DNA of 51,434 nucleotides from a bacterium (GTDB lineage Bacteria > Zixibacteria > MSB-5A5 > GN15 > FEB-12), in contig JARGFS010000003.1 in the NCBI GenBank assembly GCA_029211095.1, positions 1 to 51,434 on the forward strand. The letters are read 5' to 3'. The notes beneath the pieces are model-generated. The model was not told the origin of the DNA. It worked only from the letters and a program-made list of their open reading frames with translations, and searched no databases. Positions 12,479 to 50,580 of the stretch are shown here, piece after piece. The position numbers were made by a program, and so were the translations under genes. Position 1 is the stretch's first letter; each line of letters opens with the position of its first letter.

Positions 12479-15400
12479 CAAGCTACACTTTCTACAATCA
12501 TATCGCACCGCTCTCTTAATTCTCCTACTCGCATTTGCCTTGTCCGCTACTGTTAGGGCATCATCAATTGCACCCAGTGGCAGCGGTCGCCCGGCTGACT
12601 ACTGGCAGCAGGAAGTCAACTACGAGATGCAAGTCAGCCTCCGGGCGGATCTAAGAACCATTGTTGGCAACGTTCAGATTGAGTACATAAATAATTCCCC
12701 TGACAGTTTGAAGGTGATCTATTTCAAGGCTTTCCCGAATGCGATCCGGAAAGATTCCTACGCCGACAAAAAACGAAGGTCAATGAACGACTACTCCCTG
12801 GCCTCACTTAAACCGGAACAGGAGGGGAGACTCACGCTGGACAAGGATCGCTCCGTTTCAAGGGGTGAGTTTACATTCGAGAACAGCATCATAACCTACC
12901 ATCTCGACCGTCCCCTACCGCCGAATGACAGTGCCCGGTTTGAATTTGATTTTACCACGGTACTCCCTTCTCCGGATGCCATGCGGATGGGATACAGCCG
13001 ACAGGTAACCAAGGCTGCCTACTGGTATCCACAGGTATGCGTTTATGATTGGAAGCTGGGCTGGGTGAATTCGCAGTATATTGGATGGGGGGAATCTTAT
13101 GGTGACTTTGGGAATTTCGATGTAGCCATAACGGCGCCGGAGAATCAGGTTGTTGCCGCTACCGGCCAATTGGTGAACGAAGCCGAGGTTCTCCCCGGGG
13201 ATATTCGCTCCGGCCTGGATATCAAGAACTATCTGTTGCCGCGATCCGAATGGCCAAACCTGAACCTGGACAAAGAGAACAGCAAGACCTGGCATTATGT
13301 CGCCGAAAACGTCCCAGATTTTGTTTTCACGGCGTCATCAGAGTTCTGTATTGACAGTGGATCGGTCAACGGTGTCCGGGTTGTTTCTTATCCACTGAGA
13401 TCAAAAGCGGCCGGGTGGGTTGATGCGGTCCGGTTGGGGAAAAAGGCGATAGAAACATTTTCGGAGTTGTACTTCCCTTACCAGTGGCCGGTAATTCGCA
13501 TTTGCGATGCCTATGGCGGCATGGAATACCCGATGCTGACCAATTGCAGTGGGAAGGGACCTTCGCCATTTTTCAGTATGCTTCTCTACCACGAGATTGG
13601 TCATCAGTGGTTTATGGGGCAGGTTGCCTCCAATCCGGTGGATCGTCCTTTTCTTGACGAAGGGTTCACGACCCATGCCGAGCACAATGCGATGGAAAAA
13701 TATCGAGGACGCGCAGGAAACTATGTTAATTACAAGAACTGGTATCAAAGAAAATTCGCGCCATTAATAGAAAATCGCAATGCACGCGGGTTCAGGCCGC
13801 TCTACCTCTTAATGAAGCGTGGTTATGACAAGCCGATGACTTTCTCGTTCGACCAGGGGGAAGAGTACTGGACGTATCGGGTCTCCGCCTATTACAAATC
13901 AGCAGCGATGCATTACTCCTTAAGATCGATTTTTGGTGATAGTCTGTACTACCGGACGATGCACCAATATTGTGATCGTTGGTTCTTTGGGCATCCGTAC
14001 GAAAATGACTTCACGGCTGTCTTTGAAGAAGTGACCGGGACAGAGCTTGACAACTACCTGCAGCAGTGGTACTACGGAAGGAAGCGGACCGACTACGCCT
14101 ATACCGGTCGTTCCCGGGCGGAGCAGGGACGCTACTATGAACACAAGATCAAACTCAGGAACAAAGGGAGGTTTGTCTCGCCCATTGACGTGGCCATTAT
14201 CTGGAAGCAGGGGGATACAACTCTATACACAGTCTCTCCCGAAGGGATGGCGTACGCCAAGCCGGGGTATGTCAGTTTACCGGTCTGGCCGCAGTTCAGA
14301 AATCTTAACCGGGAGTATGAGTTTACCGTTCGGGCCCAGCGAGAAATCAAAAAGATTGTCATTGATCCGTTTAATCTGCTGGTCGATCTGGAACGAAGAA
14401 ACAACAGCTCAGACTTTCTGCCGCCAATAGAATTGAAACTAGATAATATGAAATTCGACCGGACGCCTCTGTATGAATATGCTCTTCGGTGGCGGCCGGA
14501 CCTCTGGTACACCAAAGCGAATGGAGTTGAGATAGGGGCTCATTGGCACGGTTCCTATCTTGAAGTGGATGATCGCATCTCCCTGGATGCCAGAGTTGGT
14601 ACTGAATCGGTCAGACCATTTATTGATTTCCGGTTGTCCGACCAATCCTCACTGCTGGGACGGAACGGCTATGCCGGATGGCGTGTGCTTAGATCGGACC
14701 GGAGAACTTATGTTTCTCAATGGTTTGAAAAGAGATTTCAGTCCCGGCTCACTATTGCAAACTACAACACTCTTCGTCTGGAAATGAATAGTCTTGATCT
14801 TAGCTCACATCAACTGAGTCGCTTCCAACCGCTGCCGTCAGAGCTGCAGGAGTATTTGCCGGAGAGTACATGGGATGGAAACACAACTTATTACATGAAC
14901 GTACTGTTTGAACACTCTCGTACTTTTAGATATGGGACGTTTTTCTGGGAGACTGCTGCCAACAGCGGTTTGTACAAGGAACTGCTCAGTCATAGAGGGT
15001 TCGTGATACACGAAGAAAAAATCAGCCTTGCTCTTACCAGAAAATCGAAAAACTATTTAGAACTGTCTCTTGAGTACCTGGGAACAACCGGCGTACCCCC
15101 TTCGCAATTTATCCCGCATCTCAGTAGAGCTTCGGCAGCTTACGCCTTTGTCAACGCGCCGCTGTTTCGGGGAAGAGGTACCATTCCGGAAGGCTGGACC
15201 GACAATTTCTATCTCTCCGGCTCCCGCGTCCGGGGCTACCAGGACCGAAATGTTTACCTGACCGAAGCTATGAGCGGCAGCCTTGAGTTGATCCCCCCTG
15301 ATCTTTTGCCGTATCGCTGGTTTGGAAAGGTTCCGCTGATCGGTAACTTTCTGAGCGGAATTGACCAGTCATTTTTCTGTGACCTGGCTGTCGTCTCGTT

Positions 15401-15635
15401 GGGAGAAATCAGCAGTTACTATCCTGCCCCTATCGGAATTTCAGAACTGTCCGGCAGCGGCAAGGTGGAAGAGAGCTACCTCTCCGCCGGTCTATCTATA
15501 CGCATGCCGCCGGTCTGGTCAGACCAGTCGTTGCAAATCGACTTTCCGTTTTACTTGAATAAACCGGCTGCCGATGAATCCGAGTTTGAATTTCGCCTGT
15601 CGTTTGCCTGGAGTGTGAACGCTGTTCGCCGGTAG
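12438..15635 (+). CDS. M1-family metallo-aminopeptidase with C-terminal putative outer-membrane beta-barrel extension
   Basis: YWQQ.V.Y, WYPQ, GGMEYP, HEIGHQWF-x-DEG; signal peptide; amphipathic C-terminal ~400 aa (VRGY, IDFPFY, FRLSFAW). Start uncertain (TTG 12438 or GTG 12459, both inside queD). Confidence 0.85.
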   Translation: MKRTQPAVNIPASSKLHFLQSYRTALLILLLAFALSATVRASSIAPSGSGRPADYWQQEVNYEMQVSLRADLRTIVGNVQIEYINNSPDSLKVIYFKAFPNAIRKDSYADKKRRSMNDYSLASLKPEQEGRLTLDKDRSVSRGEFTFENSIITYHLDRPLPPNDSARFEFDFTTVLPSPDAMRMGYSRQVTKAAYWYPQVCVYDWKLGWVNSQYIGWGESYGDFGNFDVAITAPENQVVAATGQLVNEAEVLPGDIRSGLDIKNYLLPRSEWPNLNLDKENSKTWHYVAENVPDFVFTASSEFCIDSGSVNGVRVVSYPLRSKAAGWVDAVRLGKKAIETFSELYFPYQWPVIRICDAYGGMEYPMLTNCSGKGPSPFFSMLLYHEIGHQWFMGQVASNPVDRPFLDEGFTTHAEHNAMEKYRGRAGNYVNYKNWYQRKFAPLIENRNARGFRPLYLLMKRGYDKPMTFSFDQGEEYWTYRVSAYYKSAAMHYSLRSIFGDSLYYRTMHQYCDRWFFGHPYENDFTAVFEEVTGTELDNYLQQWYYGRKRTDYAYTGRSRAEQGRYYEHKIKLRNKGRFVSPIDVAIIWKQGDTTLYTVSPEGMAYAKPGYVSLPVWPQFRNLNREYEFTVRAQREIKKIVIDPFNLLVDLERRNNSSDFLPPIELKLDNMKFDRTPLYEYALRWRPDLWYTKANGVEIGAHWHGSYLEVDDRISLDARVGTESVRPFIDFRLSDQSSLLGRNGYAGWRVLRSDRRTYVSQWFEKRFQSRLTIANYNTLRLEMNSLDLSSHQLSRFQPLPSELQEYLPESTWDGNTTYYMNVLFEHSRTFRYGTFFWETAANSGLYKELLSHRGFVIHEEKISLALTRKSKNYLELSLEYLGTTGVPPSQFIPHLSRASAAYAFVNAPLFRGRGTIPEGWTDNFYLSGSRVRGYQDRNVYLTEAMSGSLELIPPDLLPYRWFGKVPLIGNFLSGIDQSFFCDLAVVSLGEISSYYPAPIGISELSGSGKVEESYLSAGLSIRMPPVWSDQSLQIDFPFYLNKPAADESEFEFRLSFAWSVNAVRR

Positions 15636-15647
15636 AATCAGTCAGCT

Positions 15648-16634
15648 TCAAACCGACTGCTTCAGATATTTGAGCCGGAAATAGTCAAGCGCCTGGCGCA
15701 CATCTTCCGGATTGGAAATAGTCTCCAGGGCCACGCGGAGTTCTTTGGCCCCGTTAAATCCGGCCGCGTGTTCCCTGAGATGCTTACGCATGATCAGGAA
15801 ATTCTTTTCATCGCCAAAAATCTCAAGAAAAGAATCGGCGTGCATTTGCATGACATCAAGTCTTTCCGCCAGCGGAATTTCCGCACTCTTGCGGGTGCGA
15901 TCAAAAAGCCAGGGGTTGCCAAAAATAGCGCGCCCCAGCATGGCGCCATCTATTTCATACTTGTTGACCATCTCTTGAGCATGGTCCAGGTCGCGAAGGT
16001 CCCCGTTCCCCATCAGGAGGGTGTTGCTCCCCTTGAACATGGGAGCGGCAATTTCCATCTCTTCCCAGTGTGCTTCCACTTTGGACATCTCTTTGGCTGT
16101 CCTGAGGTGCACTGTCACCGCCACCGGTTCGGTCTGGAGCAAGTGCCCCAGCCATTCTTCGGTAATTCTCTTGTTGAATCCGATCCTTGTTTTTACAGAA
16201 ACCGGAAGGTTCCCGGCACCTTCAATAGTGGCGTGGATAATCTCTTTGGCCAGTTCCGGGTCCTTGATCAAGGCCGCCCCGGAACTCTGTTTGCAGATAT
16301 TTTTGTCCGGGCAGCCCATGTTGATATCAATACCGTCGAACTTCAAGTCCTGCACCATCTCTGCCGTTTTCAAAAAGTACTCCGGCTCTTTACCGAAAAC
16401 CTGGGCGACTATAGGGCGCTGGTTTTCATCGTACCGAAGCAGCTTCATCAGTTTTGGCCGACCGGGGGAGAAAAGTCCCCGACAGGAGACAAACTCGGTG
16501 AAGAAAACATCCGGCTTCCCTAGTCCGGCGATAACACGGCGGAAGGCGGCATCGGTGACATCGATCATCGGTGCCAGCGTAAAAATCGGTTTGGGTAAAT
16601 CTTTCCAGAATCCGGCGGGTCTATTCATGGGCAT
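15648..16634 (-). CDS. dus: tRNA-dihydrouridine synthase (Dus family)
   Basis: LAPM.DVTD.AFR, TEFV, DINMGCP, VSVKTRIG, HLRT, GNGD, MLGRA.GNPW; start ATG 16634 or 16628. Confidence 0.93.
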   Translation of the reverse strand: MPMNRPAGFWKDLPKPIFTLAPMIDVTDAAFRRVIAGLGKPDVFFTEFVSCRGLFSPGRPKLMKLLRYDENQRPIVAQVFGKEPEYFLKTAEMVQDLKFDGIDINMGCPDKNICKQSSGAALIKDPELAKEIIHATIEGAGNLPVSVKTRIGFNKRITEEWLGHLLQTEPVAVTVHLRTAKEMSKVEAHWEEMEIAAPMFKGSNTLLMGNGDLRDLDHAQEMVNKYEIDGAMLGRAIFGNPWLFDRTRKSAEIPLAERLDVMQMHADSFLEIFGDEKNFLIMRKHLREHAAGFNGAKELRVALETISNPEDVRQALDYFRLKYLKQSV

Positions 16635-16712
16635 ATATATAATCAATCGGAGCGTTGGTGCAATCTGTTTTCTGACTATGGACCTGGGAGATTGGGGGTC
16701 AGACTGTCCTGG

Positions 16713-17885
16713 TTATTTTCTGAAGAACTCAAGGTACTTGTACCCACTTCCGGTCAAAAACAGTACGACCTGATCAGTGGCGGCAACGAATCCGCTGGCA
16801 AGCAACTTCTTTAGTGCCGCCAGTGTCGCACCTGCTTCGGGTGCGGCAAAGATCCCTTCCTGAGAGGCCAAATCCAGAGTGGACTTATAAATCTCCTGTT
16901 CTGAGACGGATATGGCGGTGCCGTTGCTTTCGCGAACGGCATTGAGGATCAGGAAATCTCCTACGGCCGAGGGGACTCGTAGTCCCAATGCGGCTGTTTC
17001 CGGATGGGGCCAGAGTTCCGCCTCTTTTTTACCTTCGTCAAACGCCTTAACAATCGGAGCACACCCTTCGCTCTGGACCGATACCATCCGTGGACGCTTT
17101 GAGTCTATCAGGCCAAGCTGCTCCAACTCATCAAACGCCTTCCACATCCCAATCAATCCGGTGCCGCCGCCGGTGGGGTAAATGATAACATCCGGTAATG
17201 TCCAGCCCAGCTGCTCGGCCAATTCGTACCCCATTGTTTTTTTGCCTTCAATTCGGTACGGTTCTTTGAGCGTGGCGACAGAAAAATAATCCTCCGAGGC
17301 TACCAGCCCGGCCGCATACTCACCACAATCTTTGATACTGCCATCAATCAGTTCCACTCGTGCGCCATGCGCCTGGCAGTCGGTGATGAATACGGGGTCG
17401 GACGCCGAAGGCATCACCACGCATATTTCCATGGAGGCTCGTGCACCATAGGCGGACAGGGCGCTGCCTGCATTTCCGGCCGTGGGTACAATGAGTTTGT
17501 TGAGTCCCAGTTCGTGTGCCCGGGAGACAGCCATACTCAGACCGCGCGCTTTGAACGAACCGGTCGGGTTGGTGGATTCATCTTTCAGGAGTAGGTTCTT
17601 CAGGCCAAGTTTAACGCCGGTTCTTTGGGCGGCAAGGAGTTCTGTGCCTCCCTCTCCAAGACTTATGACATGCTTCCGGTTTTGAACGGGAAGCATCTCC
17701 CGGTACTTCCACATATTCTGGTCGCGACCCTTGAGCGATTCAACCGTCAGGCTTTTCATTGCAAGAGCATAGTCGTACTCAACCAGAAGTGGTTTTCCGC
17801 ACTGGCAGAGATTCACTATTTCTGAAAGAGAATATTGTTTGCCGCATTCTGAGCAGCGGAGATTGATCGAGGTTGAATTGGTCAT
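16713..17885 (-). CDS. thrC: Threonine synthase (PLP-dependent, N-terminal Zn-ribbon)
   Basis: C..CG..C.CG, SLGEG.T, NPTGSFKARG, AGNAG, EGKKTMGYE, YPTGGG, TGSG.K. Confidence 0.88.
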   Translation of the reverse strand: MTNSTSINLRCSECGKQYSLSEIVNLCQCGKPLLVEYDYALAMKSLTVESLKGRDQNMWKYREMLPVQNRKHVISLGEGGTELLAAQRTGVKLGLKNLLLKDESTNPTGSFKARGLSMAVSRAHELGLNKLIVPTAGNAGSALSAYGARASMEICVVMPSASDPVFITDCQAHGARVELIDGSIKDCGEYAAGLVASEDYFSVATLKEPYRIEGKKTMGYELAEQLGWTLPDVIIYPTGGGTGLIGMWKAFDELEQLGLIDSKRPRMVSVQSEGCAPIVKAFDEGKKEAELWPHPETAALGLRVPSAVGDFLILNAVRESNGTAISVSEQEIYKSTLDLASQEGIFAAPEAGATLAALKKLLASGFVAATDQVVLFLTGSGYKYLEFFRK

Positions 17886-17888
17886 TAC

Positions 17889-19724
17889 TTACTTAACCTG
17901 TAACTGTCTCCGGGTCTCTACCCAGTCTTTGATCCGTTCTTCAAGTACCATCAGTGGTATCGGTCCGGTCTCCAGGATTGTGTCGTGGAAGCCCCGGATA
18001 TCAAAAGTGTCGCCGAGTTCCTTTTCCGCGTAAGCGCGAAGTTCACGGATTTTTAGCTCCCCAATTTTATAGGCCAGGGCCTGTCCGGGCCAAACAATAT
18101 AGCGGTCAATTTCCACGATGATATCATGCTCGCTTTTGCTGGAATTCTCTTTGAAATATTCAATCGCCTGCTCTCTTGTCCAGCCTTTGTAATGCATCCC
18201 CACATCGACAACCAGGCGGATGGCTCGCCACATTTCATAGGTGAGCTGACCGAATTTGGAATAGGGGTCTTCATAAAAACCCATTTCTTCGCCCAGCTTC
18301 TCGGCATAGAGACCCCACCCCTCTCCATAGGCAGTGATCCAGCTGTTCCGCCTGAACCTGGGCAGGTTGGTCAGTTCCCTGGCAATGGAGATTTGAAGGT
18401 GATGTCCGGGGACAGCTTCGTGAAGGCTCAATGCTTCCATCTCCCACTTTGGTCGGGAGGCCAGATCATAGGTGTTGACGAAATAGTAGCCGGGGCGACG
18501 AGCGGCATGAGAGCCGGGCTGATAGTAAGCGGTTGTCTGGGACTTGGCCCCGTAGTCCGGAATTTCAATGACTCCGTAGGGCAGGCGGGGGAGGACACCA
18601 AACAGCTTGACCAATTGGGCATCAGCCCGTTTGGAAATGTCCCGATACTCGCGCACAAGATCACGCGCCTCGGTGAAATAGAATTGGTCGCTGGTCCGAA
18701 GGAACTCGCAGAAAGAACCGAAATCTCCCTTGAACCCGGTGCTATCGATAATCTCTTCCATTTCGGCCCGAATTCTTTTCACTTCACCCAGACCGATCTC
18801 ATGGATTTGATTCGGGGTGAGGTCTGTAGTGGTGTAGTACCGGCACAGATATTCATACCACTCTTTACCGAGCGGAAGGGCCGACAGTCCAATCTCTTCA
18901 CGACAGCCAGGGATATATTTACTGACGAGAAAAGTGTGCAACCGCTTCAGAGAGGGGAGCGCCTTGCTCCGGTAAACTGTGTAGGCTTCGTTCTGGATTT
19001 CCGTTTGCTGCTTCTCAGTAACTGTTTCCGGAAACTCCCCAAACACTTCCAGCATGGGGGCCGTGGAAGGCTCTTCGGCAATCTGGCTGAGTACCTGTTC
19101 CGGCAGATCACGCATGGTAACTCTGGGCGGGGTGATCTTCTGTTCCAGTCCCTTTTCCATGAGCATGATGGTTTGTGAAATCAGATCAGGCAGTGCTTTC
19201 AAACGAGCGATGATATTCTCATAGTCCTCCTTGCGGTCCGTGGACATGATACCGAACATCTCCGCCGCGGTCTGGTGAACGCCGCCCATCTGGTTGATGG
19301 GCATCAATTCCTGCTGATACTTTCGTGACTCCCGGTCAGTCAGTTTCTCCCGCATGAAGAGATCGTAACTAAGCCGGTCAACTTCGTGTAGCTCAGAGCG
19401 ATTGATAGATTCCAGGACGGCAATGATAGCGTCCTGCTCCTGCCGCCGGAACTCAATTGCTTCAAAGGAGCGATCGGTCCAACGATCATCCTGACCGGCA
19501 AATCCGTTATAGGTGGCTGACTCGGGCGATCTCAGCATCCGGTTTTCCCAGTCCATCTCGAACAGTTGGTGTAATCGTTCGGACTCTGAGAGACCGTCTG
19601 TTTTCGCTTCAAGGGCTTGGCAGGCTTCAATAAATTTAGTGTCATTCTGTTTCATAGCGCTCAGGTCTCCGGGTACTATCAGGGCAGCTATTATAGCCAA
19701 AACCGGCGAAAAAGCTTTTTGCAT
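17889..19724 (-). CDS. DUF885-family secreted protein (putative metallopeptidase)
   Basis: HEAVPGHHLQ, AYGEGWGLYAE, WRA.RLVVD.GMH, RY..WPGQALAYK.G; start reassigned to ATG 19724 (signal peptide MQKAFSPVLAIIAAL). Confidence 0.9.
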   Translation of the reverse strand: MQKAFSPVLAIIAALIVPGDLSAMKQNDTKFIEACQALEAKTDGLSESERLHQLFEMDWENRMLRSPESATYNGFAGQDDRWTDRSFEAIEFRRQEQDAIIAVLESINRSELHEVDRLSYDLFMREKLTDRESRKYQQELMPINQMGGVHQTAAEMFGIMSTDRKEDYENIIARLKALPDLISQTIMLMEKGLEQKITPPRVTMRDLPEQVLSQIAEEPSTAPMLEVFGEFPETVTEKQQTEIQNEAYTVYRSKALPSLKRLHTFLVSKYIPGCREEIGLSALPLGKEWYEYLCRYYTTTDLTPNQIHEIGLGEVKRIRAEMEEIIDSTGFKGDFGSFCEFLRTSDQFYFTEARDLVREYRDISKRADAQLVKLFGVLPRLPYGVIEIPDYGAKSQTTAYYQPGSHAARRPGYYFVNTYDLASRPKWEMEALSLHEAVPGHHLQISIARELTNLPRFRRNSWITAYGEGWGLYAEKLGEEMGFYEDPYSKFGQLTYEMWRAIRLVVDVGMHYKGWTREQAIEYFKENSSKSEHDIIVEIDRYIVWPGQALAYKIGELKIRELRAYAEKELGDTFDIRGFHDTILETGPIPLMVLEERIKDWVETRRQLQVK

Positions 19725-46821: not shown

Positions 46822-47430
46822 TTATAGCAGGTTTGGGCCCTGCCGATTATCGGTGACCGGCCTGATACTGGTTTCAATCTCCCCGGTCTGCATCCGGGAG
46901 ACAGCGCCAGCCACCAGTCTTGCTTCGGACTCTGTCTTGAGGAGGACAATATGAAAGCGACAGGTGCTGTCACAACCAAGATGATGAATGTCGGCATCGG
47001 ACAATCCAAGATTCATCAACAGGTCACACATTTGATCACTGTCTTCAATGTACTCCCGCTCCATTCCGGAGACCATGACTTCGTAGCCAACAATCTCCGC
47101 CTCCTGTCGCGGCCAGAGAGCCGCAACTAGAACGAGCAGGGCCGCGGCCACTCCAATCGCCGGACGCCACCGTCGGTTCTCCCGCCCTGACTGCCAGCGC
47201 ACCGATTCCCTTTGTTCCAGAGAATCCCGCATTGACTGAAGCGAAACTACTCCGGAAACATCAGCTACTCTCTCCCGTCTAATCGACTGATTCAAGAGTT
47301 GGATTGCTTTTGCCTCTCGTGAACAGGTGGGGCAGCTTTTAATATGTTCCAGGACTGCATCCGGCAGATCAGAAAAGCTCAATCTGGAATCGACAGTTTC
47401 TAATCGGCTTTGGACTTCGCGGCAACGCAT
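46822..47430 (-). CDS. Transmembrane anti-sigma factor, zf-HC2 (ZAS) type
   Basis: M.C.E..HIKSCPTC motif, single TM (PAIGVAAALLVLVAALW), overlaps ECF sigma gene. Confidence 0.8.
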   Translation of the reverse strand: MRCREVQSRLETVDSRLSFSDLPDAVLEHIKSCPTCSREAKAIQLLNQSIRRERVADVSGVVSLQSMRDSLEQRESVRWQSGRENRRWRPAIGVAAALLVLVAALWPRQEAEIVGYEVMVSGMEREYIEDSDQMCDLLMNLGLSDADIHHLGCDSTCRFHIVLLKTESEARLVAGAVSRMQTGEIETSIRPVTDNRQGPNLL

Positions 47431-47978
47431 GGAATTTCCCTTTCAGTTCTCTTGGAGCTTTGTCCGAGCTTCTCCGCTCTATCAATGAATGCGACCAACC
47501 GCTTTTTCATTTTCTTGCGAGAGCGGTGCAGCTCAGTTTTGACAGCGCTCTCAGACCTGTTCAACAGCTCGGCCAATTCGGCGACAGTCCAGCCCTGTAA
47601 TTCATAGAGGAGGATAGTCGCTCTTTCGGCTGGATTGAGGGCATCAAGTCCCCGCTCCAGCCAGCGCCGGGTGGCTATTGAACTCTCGCTGTCGACCGCT
47701 TTCAGGTCGGCTGTCAATTCCTCACTGTAGGTGACTCTTTTTTTCCACCAGGGACGCCTGAATTCCGCGCGATAAGTAGTCACGACAATTCGGTACAACC
47801 AGGGTCGAAATGAACCGGTCTCCCGAAGGTTTGGAAAACTTCTCAGTCCGATCATCAGGGCATCATGCAGCAGATCGTTGCCACTGTCCGGATCAGCGGT
47901 TAGCCGACTGCAGAAGGCACCAATGGCCTGGTAGTGAGGCGTGAGCAGCTCCCAAAAGAGCTCGTTAGTTTCGCGCAT
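47400..47978 (-). CDS. ECF RNA polymerase sigma factor
   Basis: Region 2 DLLHDA..F..LR...SF.PWLYRI; region 4 L...ER...L..LQG.TVAELA.L..SE..VKT.LHR.RK. Confidence 0.9.
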   Translation of the reverse strand: MRETNELFWELLTPHYQAIGAFCSRLTADPDSGNDLLHDALMIGLRSFPNLRETGSFRPWLYRIVVTTYRAEFRRPWWKKRVTYSEELTADLKAVDSESSIATRRWLERGLDALNPAERATILLYELQGWTVAELAELLNRSESAVKTELHRSRKKMKKRLVAFIDRAEKLGQSSKRTEREIPCVAAKSKAD

Positions 47979-48151: not shown

Positions 48152-48202
48152 CGATTGTAAGTGGCCGCCATACCACCAACTATCCGTTGCCGGATTGATG
48201 CT

Positions 48203-48343
48203 TTACAAGCAGTCTTGCGGAATAGGTCCGCTGTTAAAAAGGTACTCAACCAGATAGGTCAGATCGGCGATATTGGTTTGGGTATCAGTATCCAGATCGG
48301 CTTCTTCGACACAAGTGGGCGGGGGACCGCTCTGGAAGAGGTA
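48203..48343 (-). pseudogene. 3' relic of a gene with the dockerin-like C-terminal domain
   Basis: YLFQSGPPPTCVEEADLDTDTQTNIADLTYLVEYLFNSGPIPQDCL*, homologous to both M6 tails; no upstream body. Confidence 0.75.
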
Positions 48344-48469
48344 GACCGGGTTGACGAAGCATCCCGGCTCTATGCGGAGTTCCTGCATCTCTGGCGCGAA
48401 GGAGACCAGGATATTCCGGAACTCAAAGATGCCGCTATCAGGCTGGACCGTCTGAGACACTCCCCCTGA
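48344..48469 (+). pseudogene. 3' relic of a TPR-containing protein gene
   Basis: DRVDEASRLYAEFLHLWREGDQDIPELKDAAIRLDRL resembles the terminal TPR cap of Ser/Thr kinase-TPR proteins; no credible start. Confidence 0.6.
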
Positions 48470-48540
48470 TTGGTCGCCAACCGGTTCCGGGCCGATTTTC
48501 GGAGCTGACAATTCAATTTCTCGGAAACATTTTCTACTTG

Positions 48541-48585
48541 GCCGGTGTAGTTATATATGCTTATTGTTATAAGTATATGACCGGC
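48541..48585. promoter_or_regulatory. Palindromic ArsR-type operator
   Basis: ATATGCTTAT-TGTT-ATAAGTATAT (1 mismatch), flanked by GCCGGT/ACCGGC. Confidence 0.65.
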
Positions 48586-48617
48586 GAGAGACTGTAACTG
48601 GATCTGGGAGAAGATCG

Positions 48618-48923
48618 ATGGATCAGAAAGCATACAGCAAGTATTTCAAAGCATTTGGCGACCCCACCCGCCTCAAGATTCTCTGGCTGCTATCTTCAAA
48701 GCCGCTGAATGTCAATGAGATAACAGCAGAAATCGGACTCTCGCAACCGACTATCAGTCGTCACCTGGCTATTCTCAGGGACGTGGGTGCTGTCAATGAC
48801 AAGCGTGAAGGGCAACAGGTTTTTTACAGTCTCAACCACTCTTCGGTTCAGAATTGCTGCTCAGGATTCTGTGATTGTCTCTCAATTCCGGTGGTGATTC
48901 CTACAAAAAAGGAAGAAAAGTAA
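48618..48923 (+). CDS. ArsR/SmtB-family metalloregulator with C-terminal Cys cluster
   Basis: FKAFGDPTRLKIL, LSQPTISRHL..LR, REGQQVFYSL, tail CCSGFCDC. Confidence 0.93.
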   Translation: MDQKAYSKYFKAFGDPTRLKILWLLSSKPLNVNEITAEIGLSQPTISRHLAILRDVGAVNDKREGQQVFYSLNHSSVQNCCSGFCDCLSIPVVIPTKKEEK

Positions 48924-48945
48924 AAAAATTTGGGAACAAATATTG

Positions 48946-48968
48946 ATATATAGCCATATACTTATATG
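48946..48968. promoter_or_regulatory. Second ArsR operator-like site
   Basis: ATATAG-CCATATAC-TTATAT; contains CATATACTTATA (48955-48966), identical to the reverse complement of 48568-48579. Confidence 0.6.
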
Positions 48969-48993
48969 AACATTTAACTGAAAGGAATTTGAA

Positions 48994-49167
48994 ATGGAAA
49001 AAGAAGTGGGATTCATTCGAGTCACGGAAACCCCCAAGGGGATGCGCTTTGAGGTCGAAGGTGACTATTTCAAAGGGCAGAAGTCCAATTGCTGCTGCCT
49101 GCCGGTTTTTGCCTGCACTTGCAAGTGCGACCCTGACTGCTGTACCGAGGAATCTTCCGGGAAGTAG
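48994..49167 (+). CDS. 57-aa Cys-rich metallothionein-like protein (not in ORF track)
   Basis: AAAGGA SD 7 nt upstream; MEKEVGFIRVTETPKGMRFEVEGDYFKGQKSNCCCLPVFACTCKCDPDCCTEESSGK*. Confidence 0.75.
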   Translation: MEKEVGFIRVTETPKGMRFEVEGDYFKGQKSNCCCLPVFACTCKCDPDCCTEESSGK

Positions 49168-49208
49168 CGGTCAACTGAAATCAGAACCCATTTGTTAAGG
49201 AGAGAGTT

Positions 49209-49259
49209 ATGAGACGTTTTTCGATCCCCAGAGTAGCTCATTGCTGCTCAGGTAGTTAG
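49209..49259 (+). CDS. 16-aa His-Cys-Cys micropeptide
   Basis: AAGGAG SD 6 nt upstream; MRRFSIPRVAHCCSGS*. Confidence 0.45.
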   Translation: MRRFSIPRVAHCCSGS

Positions 49260-49301
49260 GTCAGGTCCTGGGCAGGACCTAAAACCGCTCGCCCAACTTG
49301 A

Positions 49302-49338
49302 GGGCCAGAGGGCAGGATAGCTCTCTGGCCTCTCTTTA
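49302..49338 (+). terminator. Probable terminator of arsR micro-operon
   Basis: GGCCAGAG...CTCTGGCC stem followed by TCTCTTT; a REP-like hairpin (TAGGTCAGGTCCTGGGCAGGACCT) precedes it at 49257-49280. Confidence 0.5.
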
Positions 49339-49479
49339 TACCGGAGAAAACCGACCTCAATCGTGGACGATAAATCTCCATTATTTTTCGAAGCGCGGGA
49401 ACCTGTTCTCCAACAATCCGGTTAAGACGTGTACTGACAACGGATAATGCCGACTAACTTGATTACTTTGGGTTTGATT

Positions 49480-49773
49480 ATGACAGAACAGGAGATCAAA
49501 GAACAACTGCAAAACTTCCCTTACCTTCGGAAGTACCTCTCAGAAATACCATCCAACTGCTGGTCACTTCTGGTTCCGAACTCAGTTACGAAGTTCAAAG
49601 AATTTGAATACACTATTCGTGAGTGTTGGGCCGAAGGAGAAATCCGTGACAGCGTTATGTCGGTCCAGAATCGATTCGGCCTTCCGCTAAGGCCAAACCT
49701 CAGTATTCGTGAGACACTTCAGCGGCTGAGAATCAGGAAACTGAAGTCCCGCCGCCAGCCCGGTCGTAGATAG
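49480..49773 (+). CDS. Hypothetical protein
   Basis: Open frame 49447/49480-49773 in an otherwise empty gap; no recognisable motif. Confidence 0.45.
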   Translation: MTEQEIKEQLQNFPYLRKYLSEIPSNCWSLLVPNSVTKFKEFEYTIRECWAEGEIRDSVMSVQNRFGLPLRPNLSIRETLQRLRIRKLKSRRQPGRR

Positions 49774-49818: not shown

Positions 49819-50580
49819 ATGCGCCACCCGATAGAATACAGAATCGTTACCGCTGCGGAATCGCCCGAACTGGTGTTGGAAGCGAATGCGAAAATTGGCC
49901 ATGAGTGGCCGGAATTTATGCTGCACGATCCGGTTGCGGAACTTTTTGAACGCCTCTATCGGGATCTGCCGGATTATCAGTTTGTGATGATTGAAGAGCC
50001 AAGCGGCAAAACTGTTGCGGTCGGAAACTCGGTGCCTCTGTCCTACAACGAAGAGATTGAGGATCTACCGGAGGATGGCTGGGATTGGGCGATGAAAAAG
50101 AGCTTTGCCGATCTGGACGCCGGGGCAACTCCCAACATGCAGTGCGCCATTCAGATTGTAGTTTTTGGTGGAAACCGGGGGAAGGGGATGAGTCGCCAGG
50201 CGGTAGCGTCAATGAAAGAATTAGGTCGCTTGAGCTGTCCCCGCGGAATGGTAGCCCCCGTTCGTCCCAACCATAAACCGAATTATCCGCTCATCTCAAT
50301 TGACGATTATATCACTTGGAAGCGGGAGGATGGTCAGCCGTTTGATCCCTGGCTTCGGGTCCATTACAGTCTGGGCGCGGAGATTATCAAGCCGTGCCAT
50401 ACGGCTATGCAAATCTCTGGTACGGTAAGCGAATGGCAGGACTGGACCGGGATACACTTTTTGCAAAGTGGTGACTATGTTATCCCCGGGGCATTGACCC
50501 CGGTTACGTTTGATGTTCGTGCCGATGTTGGCCTATACATTGAGCCCAATGTCTGGATGTTCCACCCTCCTTTGAGATAG
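49819..50580 (+). CDS. GNAT-fold N-acetyltransferase-like protein
   Basis: WPEFMLHD, LP..GWD, RGKGMS acetyl-CoA motif, APVRP..K..YP, DPWLRVH...G, Y.EPNVW. Confidence 0.85.
   Translation: MRHPIEYRIVTAAESPELVLEANAKIGHEWPEFMLHDPVAELFERLYRDLPDYQFVMIEEPSGKTVAVGNSVPLSYNEEIEDLPEDGWDWAMKKSFADLDAGATPNMQCAIQIVVFGGNRGKGMSRQAVASMKELGRLSCPRGMVAPVRPNHKPNYPLISIDDYITWKREDGQPFDPWLRVHYSLGAEIIKPCHTAMQISGTVSEWQDWTGIHFLQSGDYVIPGALTPVTFDVRADVGLYIEPNVWMFHPPLR

Follow-up and report, generated by a model that had tools for sequence, protein, structure and literature searches.

Which genes does an ArsR-type repressor control when no efflux or reductase gene is attached to it, and what might such a unit handle? The question is raised by a locus in a Zixibacteria genome assembly (GCA_029211095.1), near the end of the first 51,434 nucleotides (nt) of contig JARGFS010000003.1, a stretch referred to here as the window. 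The sequence and the list of open reading frames (ORFs) between positions 47800 and 49900 give the order arsR, a 57-amino-acid (aa) ORF, a 16-aa ORF (the micro-ORF), an element of a 26-nt type and a terminator hairpin, all on the plus strand. We report that the two small ORFs are genuine genes: they are conserved, show purifying selection and are tightly linked to arsR. Moreover, we lean, with reservations, towards reading the cassette as a self-contained sensor-and-effector unit for a thiophilic ligand (a metal or a metalloid) that is conserved in Zixibacteria. The parts of the cassette are:

48552..48580, plus strand: AT-rich operator-like repeats 5' of arsR, matching the operator before the small gene.
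48618..48923, plus strand: arsR, 101 aa, an ArsR/SmtB-family winged-helix repressor with C-terminal NCCSGFCDC.
48929..48970, plus strand: spacer with the operator and putative promoter for the small gene, TTTGGGAAC followed by the palindrome CATATA-CT-TATATG (48955-48968).
48994..49167, plus strand: gene for the 57-aa protein, with a beta-hairpin and helix N-domain and a Cys-pair tail.
49197..49259, plus strand: Shine-Dalgarno (SD) site and 16-aa micro-ORF MRRFSIPRVAHCCSGS (ATG at 49209, stop at 49257-49259).
49265..49295, plus strand: conserved non-coding element, a divergent copy (GTCCTGGGCAGGAC-CTA-AAAC..GCCCA) of the family consensus GTCCCGGGyAnGAC-nnn-AAACTGCCC.
49302..49341, plus strand: intrinsic-terminator-like hairpin (49302-49331) and T-rich tail, from terminator scan and folding; end of the transcription unit.

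A sequence-only reading of the window had described an ArsR-controlled micro-operon for a metallothionein-like protein and a 16-aa peptide, and had proposed looking in relatives for both beside arsR, with frames and Cys conserved. This check came out in favour of the reading. For the 57-aa gene, 56 of 60 loci (duplicates included) have an arsR of the same clade directly 5' and in the same orientation; two of the four exceptions lie at contig ends, and the other two, in one genus, have a methyltransferase-like ORF before an unlinked small gene. An intact micro-ORF, with SD site, start codon and the same frame, follows the small gene in 38 of 43 distinct downstream regions. The Cys residues are kept, and the ratio of non-synonymous to synonymous differences per site (pN/pS) is low only in the proposed frames: 0.247 against 1.33 and 1.74 in the shifted frames for the 57-aa gene (first 26 codons after the start), and 0.32 against 1.26 and 1.13 for the micro-ORF. 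The same reading had placed both ORFs below the cutoff of the ORF list; with a cutoff of 20 aa this is correct for the 16-aa ORF and incorrect for the 57-aa gene.

Relatives of the 57-aa protein were found at several distances. A word-indexed search returned two close relatives (75% and 74% identity) on short contigs, and a six-frame search of 41 related genomes returned full-length relatives at 36-42% identity. A ten-sequence profile searched against 1.84 billion representative proteins matched 78 clusters at E<=1e-3, of which 19 reached E<=1e-10; a handful of those with the poorest scores are long repetitive proteins and probably false. Within the phylum, where profile hits went down to E 1.4e-26, a 64-member profile detected the gene, mostly in single copy, in 57 of 285 genomes and in 39 of the 198 genomes of high quality. 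The homologues are labelled candidate division Zixibacteria or Zixiibacteriota, together with a few metagenome-assembled genomes of Ignavibacteria and one Nitrospirae protein, and the annotation of all of them is 'hypothetical protein'.

The protein itself (MEKEVGFIRVTETPKGMRFEVEGDYFKGQKSNCCCLPVFACTCKCDPDCCTEESSGK) has eight Cys (14%), at residues 33, 34, 35, 41, 43, 45, 49 and 50, which confirms the earlier description of eight Cys in the last 25 residues behind a Cys-free, beta-like N-terminal half. In the AlphaFold2 model this half forms a beta-hairpin and a helix (strands 6-13 and 16-23, helix 25-32), with block means of the predicted local distance difference test (pLDDT) of 76, 85 and 64 over residues 1-30; from residue 30 onward pLDDT is mostly <50 and the Cys tail is modelled as disordered. 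Residues E2, T11, E12, G16, G23, K27, C33, C35, C49 and C50 are invariant in the first ten sequences, and the family pattern reads MEKExGxIKxTETDDGFRIEVTGKxLK followed by a tail of CC (or CxC), 8-12 residues and CC. Among 42 distinct Zixibacterial proteins the number of Cys varies between 3 and 8, with a mode of 5 in approximately 56 aa, and 28 of the 42 have exactly two CC pairs. With 8 Cys the window copy is at the top of the family range; the family core is just two vicinal pairs (CC...CC), leaner than a classical metallothionein. That the protein is not SmtA/BmtA-like, as had also been suggested, was supported: neither the 57-aa protein nor any of the 64 family members matches the Metallothio_Pro (SmtA/BmtA) profile, and 0 of the 64 match any Pfam metallothionein family.

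Other libraries gave a similar picture. No Pfam family (at E<=1) and no NCBIfam family matched the window protein, nor did any Pfam family match the 64 members at E<=0.1; a profile search of PDB sequences with the family gave a best E of 0.17, a VIA-align structure search of 48,161 chains gave none at Z>=2, and in the ESM Atlas the protein resembles unnamed clusters only (scores 0.77 and 0.76). Some family members carry the hairpin unit or the whole protein in tandem duplicate (L031:709-945, L032:1700-1876, P0004, P0022, P0026, P0035, P0052, P0063 and P0067), and a member of the duplicated form was modelled with two hairpins. Because these members duplicate the hairpin unit in tandem, single-unit proteins may pair up, a hint that the single-hairpin 57-aa proteins could act as dimers.

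The micro-ORF of the window is present as first described: AGGAG (49198-49202) lies six bases 5' of the ATG, and the product is MRRFSIPRVAHCCSGS. Alignment of 54 distinct, in-register homologous segments (A5, which includes further loci) shows an SD-like site in 53 of 54 versions and start codons ATG (51) or GTG (3). Through codon 16 the alignment is periodic, codon positions 1 and 2 having 0-1.0 bit of entropy (mostly 0) and position 3 having 0.85-1.9 bits at Pro, Arg, Ala, His, Cys and Gly codons; moreover, Arg codons switch between CGN and AGR. The peptide consensus is M-[KR]-R-[FY]-x-[IV]-P-R-x-A-[HR]-C-x-x-G-C. Its last hexapeptide occurs in two forms, [H/R]CxxGC in 42 and [H/R]CCxGS in 12 of the 54 versions, such that there are exactly two Cys in 54/54 and Cys at position 13 is always coupled with Ser at position 16. 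In the CC-type this Ser is encoded by AGY in some versions and by TCN in others, and the use of two codon families suggests that it is the peptide, and not an RNA helix, that is selected. One micro-ORF outside this set (L097) has HCCEGA. Past codon 16 the frame runs for 0-8 codons, with stops at 16, 17, 18, 22 and 24 codons and later in three versions. Four micropeptides that were searched had no match to a Pfam or NCBIfam family.

Among the distinct regions 3' of the small gene, the micro-ORF is missing in L056, L058 and L060. It is broken in L008 (1750-1939, one-base insertion) and in L025 (282-391, stop at codon 2); the element is intact in both, and the interruptions reflect either decay or assembly errors.

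Four other explanations for features of this segment were tried and set aside. A 13-nt identity between the 3' end of arsR and the micro-ORF follows from a shared CCSG coding motif and is not a repeat element. A TGCAGC/GCTGCA hairpin inside the micro-ORF is paired in 88.5% of cells and is broken in CC-type versions with TCN Ser; codon content explains it better. For a selenocysteine insertion (SECIS) or readthrough signal the UGA would have to be conserved, and the entropy at that base is 1.81 bits. As for an antisense ORF, the periodicity favours the plus frame.

Beyond the reading frame, some 26 nt starting 9 nt past codon 16 (A5 columns 72-97) are conserved at all three codon positions. Together with the loci described below that lack the 57-aa gene, this element had been overlooked in the sequence-only reading. 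Allowing <=2 mismatches, its pattern was found in 93 of 285 genomes against three hits for a reversed control, and it occurs once per genome in most cases, which led us to discard the idea of a genome-wide repeat. The copy in the window has three mismatches, was found at 49266 with a looser pattern and lies outside the 93-genome count. Although the stop codon moves, the distance from the Cys motif to the element is fixed in 54 of 56 segments. By inspection, the spacing within the element suits neither an integron attC site nor a sigma-54 promoter, and both ideas were rejected.

RNAalifold predicts a hairpin of 5 bp, GGGCA/UGCCC, in whose 11-nt loop the invariant GAC and AAA(C) lie. In 54 sequences 95.2% of cells are paired, one pair has two-sided changes (three compensatory cells) and U-G wobbles occur at several others; the element varies too little for a stringent test of covariation. 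A second stem, of 3 bp (GUC/GAC), is possible, its three pairs never varying and a flanking pair being formed in 23 of 54; with an A-rich third loop it could make an H-type pseudoknot, on which the data are neutral. The window copy is predicted to fold as a 7-bp hairpin, AGGUCCU/AGGACCU, an extended version of the second stem. The stretch 49195-49345 has a folding z-score of -3.02, with the terminator hairpin in both the minimum-energy and the centroid fold.

At the variable position of CAnGAC in the element, G goes together with G for T in AAACTGCC (...CAGGAC...AAA[C/A]GGCC; A5 columns 82 and 93); this co-variation is non-Watson-Crick and fits neither structural model. Searching eight loci against Rfam at E<=1 gave no match at gathering score and no hit to ykkC-III (the guanidine-III riboswitch, which the element loosely recalls). 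Three matches were sub-threshold, a viral pseudoknot and two to anti-hemB, a Burkholderia small RNA (sRNA), at L044:1780-1862 (plus strand, 29.5 bits) and L055:1270-1347 (minus strand, 25.2 bits) against a threshold of 49.5; the anti-hemB matches, over the element and terminator, are probably due to CCCGGG hairpins.

The terminator-like hairpin reported earlier 3' of the small ORFs is present at 49302-49331, with 12 pairs (8 G-C) and a T-rich tail, and is the sole such site in 48450-49460; shuffled sequences averaged 1.1 terminator sites, so that the scan alone is weak evidence. Relatives likewise have a GC-rich hairpin and a T-run after the element, and the next gene is mostly convergent. Since the terminator and usually a convergent gene come next, the micro-ORF is no leader peptide for a downstream gene, and this candidate role was dropped.

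How constant are these parts as partners of arsR? From the 93 genomes matching the element pattern, 30 loci were retrieved and 29 analysed: two were chance matches, nine had arsR, small gene and micro-ORF, one was cut at the contig start, and 17 had arsR and micro-ORF and no small gene recognised by the 64-member profile (in six of the 17, L078 and L088-L092, a 220-320-nt spacer could conceal a divergent small gene). In nine of the 17 the stop codon of a second clade of ArsR overlaps the micro-ORF start through ATGA. In L096 and L097 a T-run, GAAAC and the palindrome are followed by about 90 nt with no ORF and then by the micro-ORF, and the 57-aa gene is missing. As many genomes hold arsR, micro-ORF and element and lack the 57-aa gene, the micro-ORF/element pair is the more constant arsR partner.

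Some genomes carry two modules (G101 with L062 and L086, G032 with L095 and L049, G112, G225 and others). One module of G101 is complete and the other has arsR and micro-ORF only, while the second copy in G032 lies behind a seemingly decayed arsR and only the 3' end of its frame is recognisable.

No neighbouring gene family is present in more than five of 45 distinct loci, in agreement with the earlier statement that no efflux or reductase gene is attached. Two neighbour clusters reached five loci; they are not maturase-like, as judged by eye from N-terminal sequences rather than by a family-library scan. An arsenite methyltransferase gene (arsM; NF008823, 350.7 bits, cut-off 263) lies directly 3' of the cassette in genome G128 (L054:423-1262, minus strand).

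The sensor is, by its sequence, a clear member of the ArsR/SmtB family, above the curated cut-offs of Pfam HTH_5 (PF01022; E 5.8e-17, 61.7 bits, cut-off 22) and NCBIfam HTH_metalloreg (NF033788; 93.8 bits, cut-off 55). The closest solved chains are SrnR, HlyU, an ArsR and CzrA (E 1e-11 to 1e-10); alignments to CzrA and SmtB chains stop at query residues 76-77, short of the Cys cluster. This cluster, NCCSGFCDC, comprises Cys80, 81, 85 and 87 (CC-x3-C-x-C) on the C-terminal helix, which carries Cys rather than His. Cys80, Cys81 and Cys85 are invariant in eight of eight aligned ArsR orthologues, and the second ArsR clade, linked to the same micro-ORF, also bears a Cys cluster on its C-terminal helix (..GCFPCC(C/S)..).

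According to PMC11868830, the As(III) site of type 1 ArsR (R773) is Cys32-x-Cys34-x2-Cys37 in the DNA-binding region, and that of the type 2 AfArsR of Acidithiobacillus ferrooxidans is formed by Cys95, Cys96 and Cys102 at the end of the C-terminal helix. The type 1 site is absent from the window ArsR, whose first Cys is residue 80 and whose DNA-binding helix region has no Cys. By motif rather than by alignment, the cassette ArsR resembles AfArsR and SpArsR in having vicinal Cys and, a short way on, a third Cys at the end of the C-terminal dimerisation helix; unlike AfArsR, it has the spacing CC-x3-C-x-C, a fourth Cys and no ars genes under its control.

Where would such a repressor act? The palindrome CATATACTTATATG (48955-48968) has a near-copy 5' of arsR (48568-48580). 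The two sites appear as a direct repeat (D3; 48568-48580 and 48957-48969, 85%) and as an inverted pair (I2; 48568-48579 and 48955-48966, 100% complementary), with a further inverted pair (I3). Within the 3.06-Mb genome assembly the exact 6-2-6 palindrome is unique to the cassette, and the 13-mer operator type occurs three times, twice at the cassette. Given the related palindromes 5' of both arsR and the small gene, and an unlinked small gene that keeps the operator type (G186 and G188; in G186 the arsR/micro-ORF locus is on another contig), we infer that ArsR controls two promoters and that its regulon does not extend beyond the cassette.

Relatives show a similar arrangement. The spacer between arsR and the small gene is about 67-88 nt in 28 of 30 listed loci and 264 nt in L006. 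Of 43 distinct upstream regions, 35 have a T-run followed by G[A/G]AAC, 35 have CATAT-N2-6-ATATG some 15 nt beyond G[A/G]AAC, and 38 have a strong SD site before the small gene. A TTGAC[AT] box lies 5' of arsR in 32 of 39 regions and is followed by a relaxed AT-rich inverted repeat in 23 of 39; the window's own arsR upstream region matches neither pattern. The small gene appears to have its own operator and promoter 3' of arsR and would seem not to be a simple continuation of an arsR operon.

We propose the following mechanism, in which repression, the nature of the inducer, the binding of metal by the two products, the part played by the RNA element and oligomerisation are all inferred. An ArsR dimer would bind AT-rich palindromes at two promoters, that of arsR itself and another just 3' of the gene, both of which the palindromes overlap. 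By analogy with ArsRs that have a C-terminal site, a soft metal or metalloid would bind the Cys cluster and release the repressor; As(III)/Sb(III) would qualify, and so would Cd, Zn, Cu(I) or Hg. The second unit would then be transcribed, giving the 57-aa protein, the micropeptide, the RNA element and the terminator. The 57-aa protein, a hairpin/helix domain with a flexible vicinal-Cys-pair tail, may act as a metal-binding thiolate buffer or chaperone, and the micropeptide of 16-28 aa, with one His/Arg and exactly two Cys, would be translated ahead of the conserved RNA element and terminator.

With respect to the ligand, the host assembly has four HTH_5 matches, and on contig C163 (G000, 15218-17995) it carries a canonical ars operon with an ArsR that has a CVC motif, a 363-aa Acr3-like permease (assigned by eye from length and sequence) and a 135-aa ArsC (phosphatase-type, by eye, from its CTGNSCRS motif). 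The operator of this operon is likewise a palindrome, ATATCCGCATATACGGATAT, and 5' of the operon is encoded a divergent protein of 199 aa that contains the heavy-metal-binding motif GMTCGGC. That ordinary arsenic resistance is encoded elsewhere lowers the case for As(III) as the cassette ligand and leaves it standing.

Several observations weigh against a metal(loid) sensor-and-effector unit. Arsenite need not be the ligand, in view of the canonical ars operon, and just one of 45 loci (L054) has an adjoining arsenic gene. The cassette is patchy (57/285 genomes) and was not found in the sole same-genus genome, which is 85% complete. A core of 4-5 Cys in approximately 56 residues is lean for a metallothionein, a 16-mer with two Cys is a costly and weak chelator, and sequestration leaves the conserved RNA element unexplained. 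A scan with an E. coli-type sigma-70 consensus gave no site in 48450-49460, and the -35-like box of the window is degenerate. Finally, the ArsR family includes sulfite- and persulfide-sensing members, and BigR is among the sub-threshold hits of the window ArsR (49.3 bits).

The last point leads to a different function, in which the cassette handles reactive sulfur or oxidative/electrophilic stress: the Cys of the ArsR cluster would become joined by di- or polysulfide links, in the manner of BigR/SqrR-type ArsRs, and the Cys-pair protein and peptide would be sulfane-sulfur carriers or sacrificial thiols. Cys pairs common to all three products, the lack of a linked metal transporter, a separate arsenic operon in the genome and the environmental metagenomes from which the relatives stem (presumably of sulfidic-sediment origin) are all compatible with this. 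We nevertheless regard it as unlikely. The BigR score is far below its cut-off of 155, and SdpR and other sub-families are also under theirs. Known BigR/SqrR/CstR regulons include sulfur-oxidation or persulfide dioxygenase genes, and none of these is linked in the 45 loci. Moreover, His beside Cys and vicinal Cys pairs are typical metal(loid) ligand sets, which the peptide His next to Cys and the vicinal pairs resemble, and arsM adjoins one locus. A biosynthetic role, in which the small product or products are precursors of ribosomally synthesised and post-translationally modified peptides matured by enzymes encoded elsewhere, would account for the conserved N-part and the Cys-bearing C-part, variable in length and sequence, of both products; we consider it very improbable, as the neighbourhood has no recurring genes of the radical-SAM, cyclodehydratase, lanthipeptide or protease/export kinds, such as the maturase gene adjacent to precursors like SCIFF (no family in more than five of 45 loci), the repressor is the only constant partner, and the 57-aa N-domain is modelled as a folded hairpin/helix that is tandem-duplicated in some members. 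That the small ORFs are chance frames in the arsR 3' untranslated region is next to untenable. It could draw on the fact that neither product has a family match and that a 16-aa ORF is shorter than any gene caller's limit, and it is already contradicted by the profile relatives (E down to 1.4e-26), by pN/pS of 0.25 and 0.32 in frame against >1.1 in shifted frames, by the SD-like site in 53/54 with a conserved start codon, and by conserved synteny.

Able to coexist with ArsR as the sensor is the possibility, which we hold to be rather improbable, that micro-ORF and element form a regulatory RNA device. This could be a dual-function sRNA that uses its invariant stretch to act on other mRNAs or to bind a protein, or a nascent-peptide sensor in which the His/Cys peptide, never longer than the ribosome tunnel, halts the ribosome when the ligand is present and alters the fate of the transcript. 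Such a device would fit the contrast between a periodic ORF and an element conserved at all codon positions, the fixed distance to the Cys motif (54/56) despite a moving stop codon, and the hairpin-compatible alignment (95.2% paired, three compensatory cells) with its conserved loop. The pattern is also in more genomes than the 57-aa gene (93 against 57 of 285), it is the sole product of the ArsR-type promoter in L096 and L097, and the terminator and usually convergent gene leave no leader role. Covariation is, however, thin (one double-change pair; the three pairs of the second stem never vary and their flank forms in 23/54), no Rfam family was matched at gathering score and no target was identified. 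Selection on amino acids across the whole 16-residue core, with Ser from two codon families, suggests that the peptide matters, and the varying stop position makes stalling at the stop codon unlikely. A related and rather speculative idea joins the two, namely that the constant ArsR-controlled output is a new bifunctional RNA, a His/Cys micropeptide joined to a hairpin/pseudoknot-like element, with the 57-aa protein as an optional buffer. The peptide, nascent or free, would bind the thiophilic ligand and the element would turn binding into an effect on the fate of the transcript or on other genes; we doubt that this is the case.

Returning to the sensor-and-effector unit, its regulatory logic follows the SmtB/SmtA theme as a variant; the novelty lies in the parts. 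According to PMC8790569, AzuR (ArsR/SmtB) binds a 12-2-12 repeat 5' of the metallothionein gene nmtA and is released by metals. The cassette resembles SmtB-SmtA and AzuR-NmtA in having an ArsR/SmtB repressor, an inverted-repeat operator before a small Cys-bearing gene and no attached transporter. It differs in that the effector is outside the SmtA/BmtA family, with a folded Cys-free N-domain and a core of two vicinal Cys pairs, and in that the unit includes a conserved micro-ORF and RNA element. The C-terminal-helix (alpha5) site of SmtB/CzrA has His/Asp/Glu ligands; unlike SmtB, the cassette sensor has a Cys cluster on this helix. Unlike in AfArsR systems, the host genome holds a separate ArsR with a classical CVC site and an arsenic operon.

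For the 57-aa protein a parallel in architecture is TrxA of Runella aurantiaca, a thioredoxin-metallothionein chimera that, according to PMC13578184, binds heavy metals and raises the tolerance of E. coli. Both proteins are a folded domain with a Cys-bearing tail; the folded part of the 57-aa protein, as modelled, is an approximately 30-residue hairpin/helix of no known family and it has far fewer Cys. The metalloid sites of ArsD are vicinal Cys pairs, the N-terminal site being Cys12-Cys13-Cys18, and the strand-like N-part and CC/Cx3C loop of the micropeptide may resemble this site. Unlike ArsD, the micropeptide is only 16-28 aa and has no arsA partner; neither the 57-aa family nor the four micropeptides match Pfam ArsD, and no neighbour family, arsA included, recurs in more than five of 45 loci. 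Small translated regulatory ORFs and dual-function RNAs are known in TnaC, MgtL and SgrS/SgrT. As in these, a very short conserved ORF is joined to a conserved RNA structure, and the peptide fits the ribosome tunnel at termination; the micro-ORF differs in lying at the 3' end of its unit before a terminator, with no regulated downstream gene and a stop position that varies. No paper on an ArsR/Cys-protein/micro-ORF cassette was found, subscription journals and supplements being outside the coverage.

The new parts are a family of small proteins to which no known profile or structure corresponds, a clade of ArsR whose dimerisation helix bears a Cys cluster, and a micro-ORF with two Cys states joined to an RNA element. 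Bacterial metallothionein-type systems are known from few lineages, and the cassette would extend them to an uncultured phylum and to a new architecture, in which a mini hairpin domain bears a vicinal-Cys-pair tail. With its locus-unique operator and minimal regulon, the ArsR clade offers a candidate for a compact sensor part. What stands out most among the components is the micro-ORF, which is unseen by gene callers, selected at the amino-acid level in two interchangeable Cys arrangements and joined to an RNA element, and which in many genomes is apparently the only product that the repressor controls. If the micropeptide or the RNA is functional, it would represent a rare case of a conserved bacterial peptide of <30 residues tied to metal(loid) or thiol stress.

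As to the surroundings of the cassette in the window, two fully overlapping 102-aa ORFs on opposite strands (48161-48469, plus; 48203-48511, minus) lie just 5' of the arsR promoter; the minus-strand ORF, which ends ...IADLTYLVEYLFNSGPIP..., has no Pfam/NCBIfam match and is perhaps what is left of a larger secreted protein. Further 5', on the minus strand (46822-47978), an extracytoplasmic function (ECF)-type sigma factor gene (47400-47978; Sigma70_r4_2 9.6e-15, Sigma70_r2 3.8e-8) overlaps an ORF of 202 aa whose product has Cys in its N-terminus and resembles an anti-sigma factor for it. On the 3' side, the plus-strand ORFs 49447-49773 (108 aa) and 49819-50580 (253 aa) have no Pfam/NCBIfam family and are not conserved beside the cassette elsewhere.

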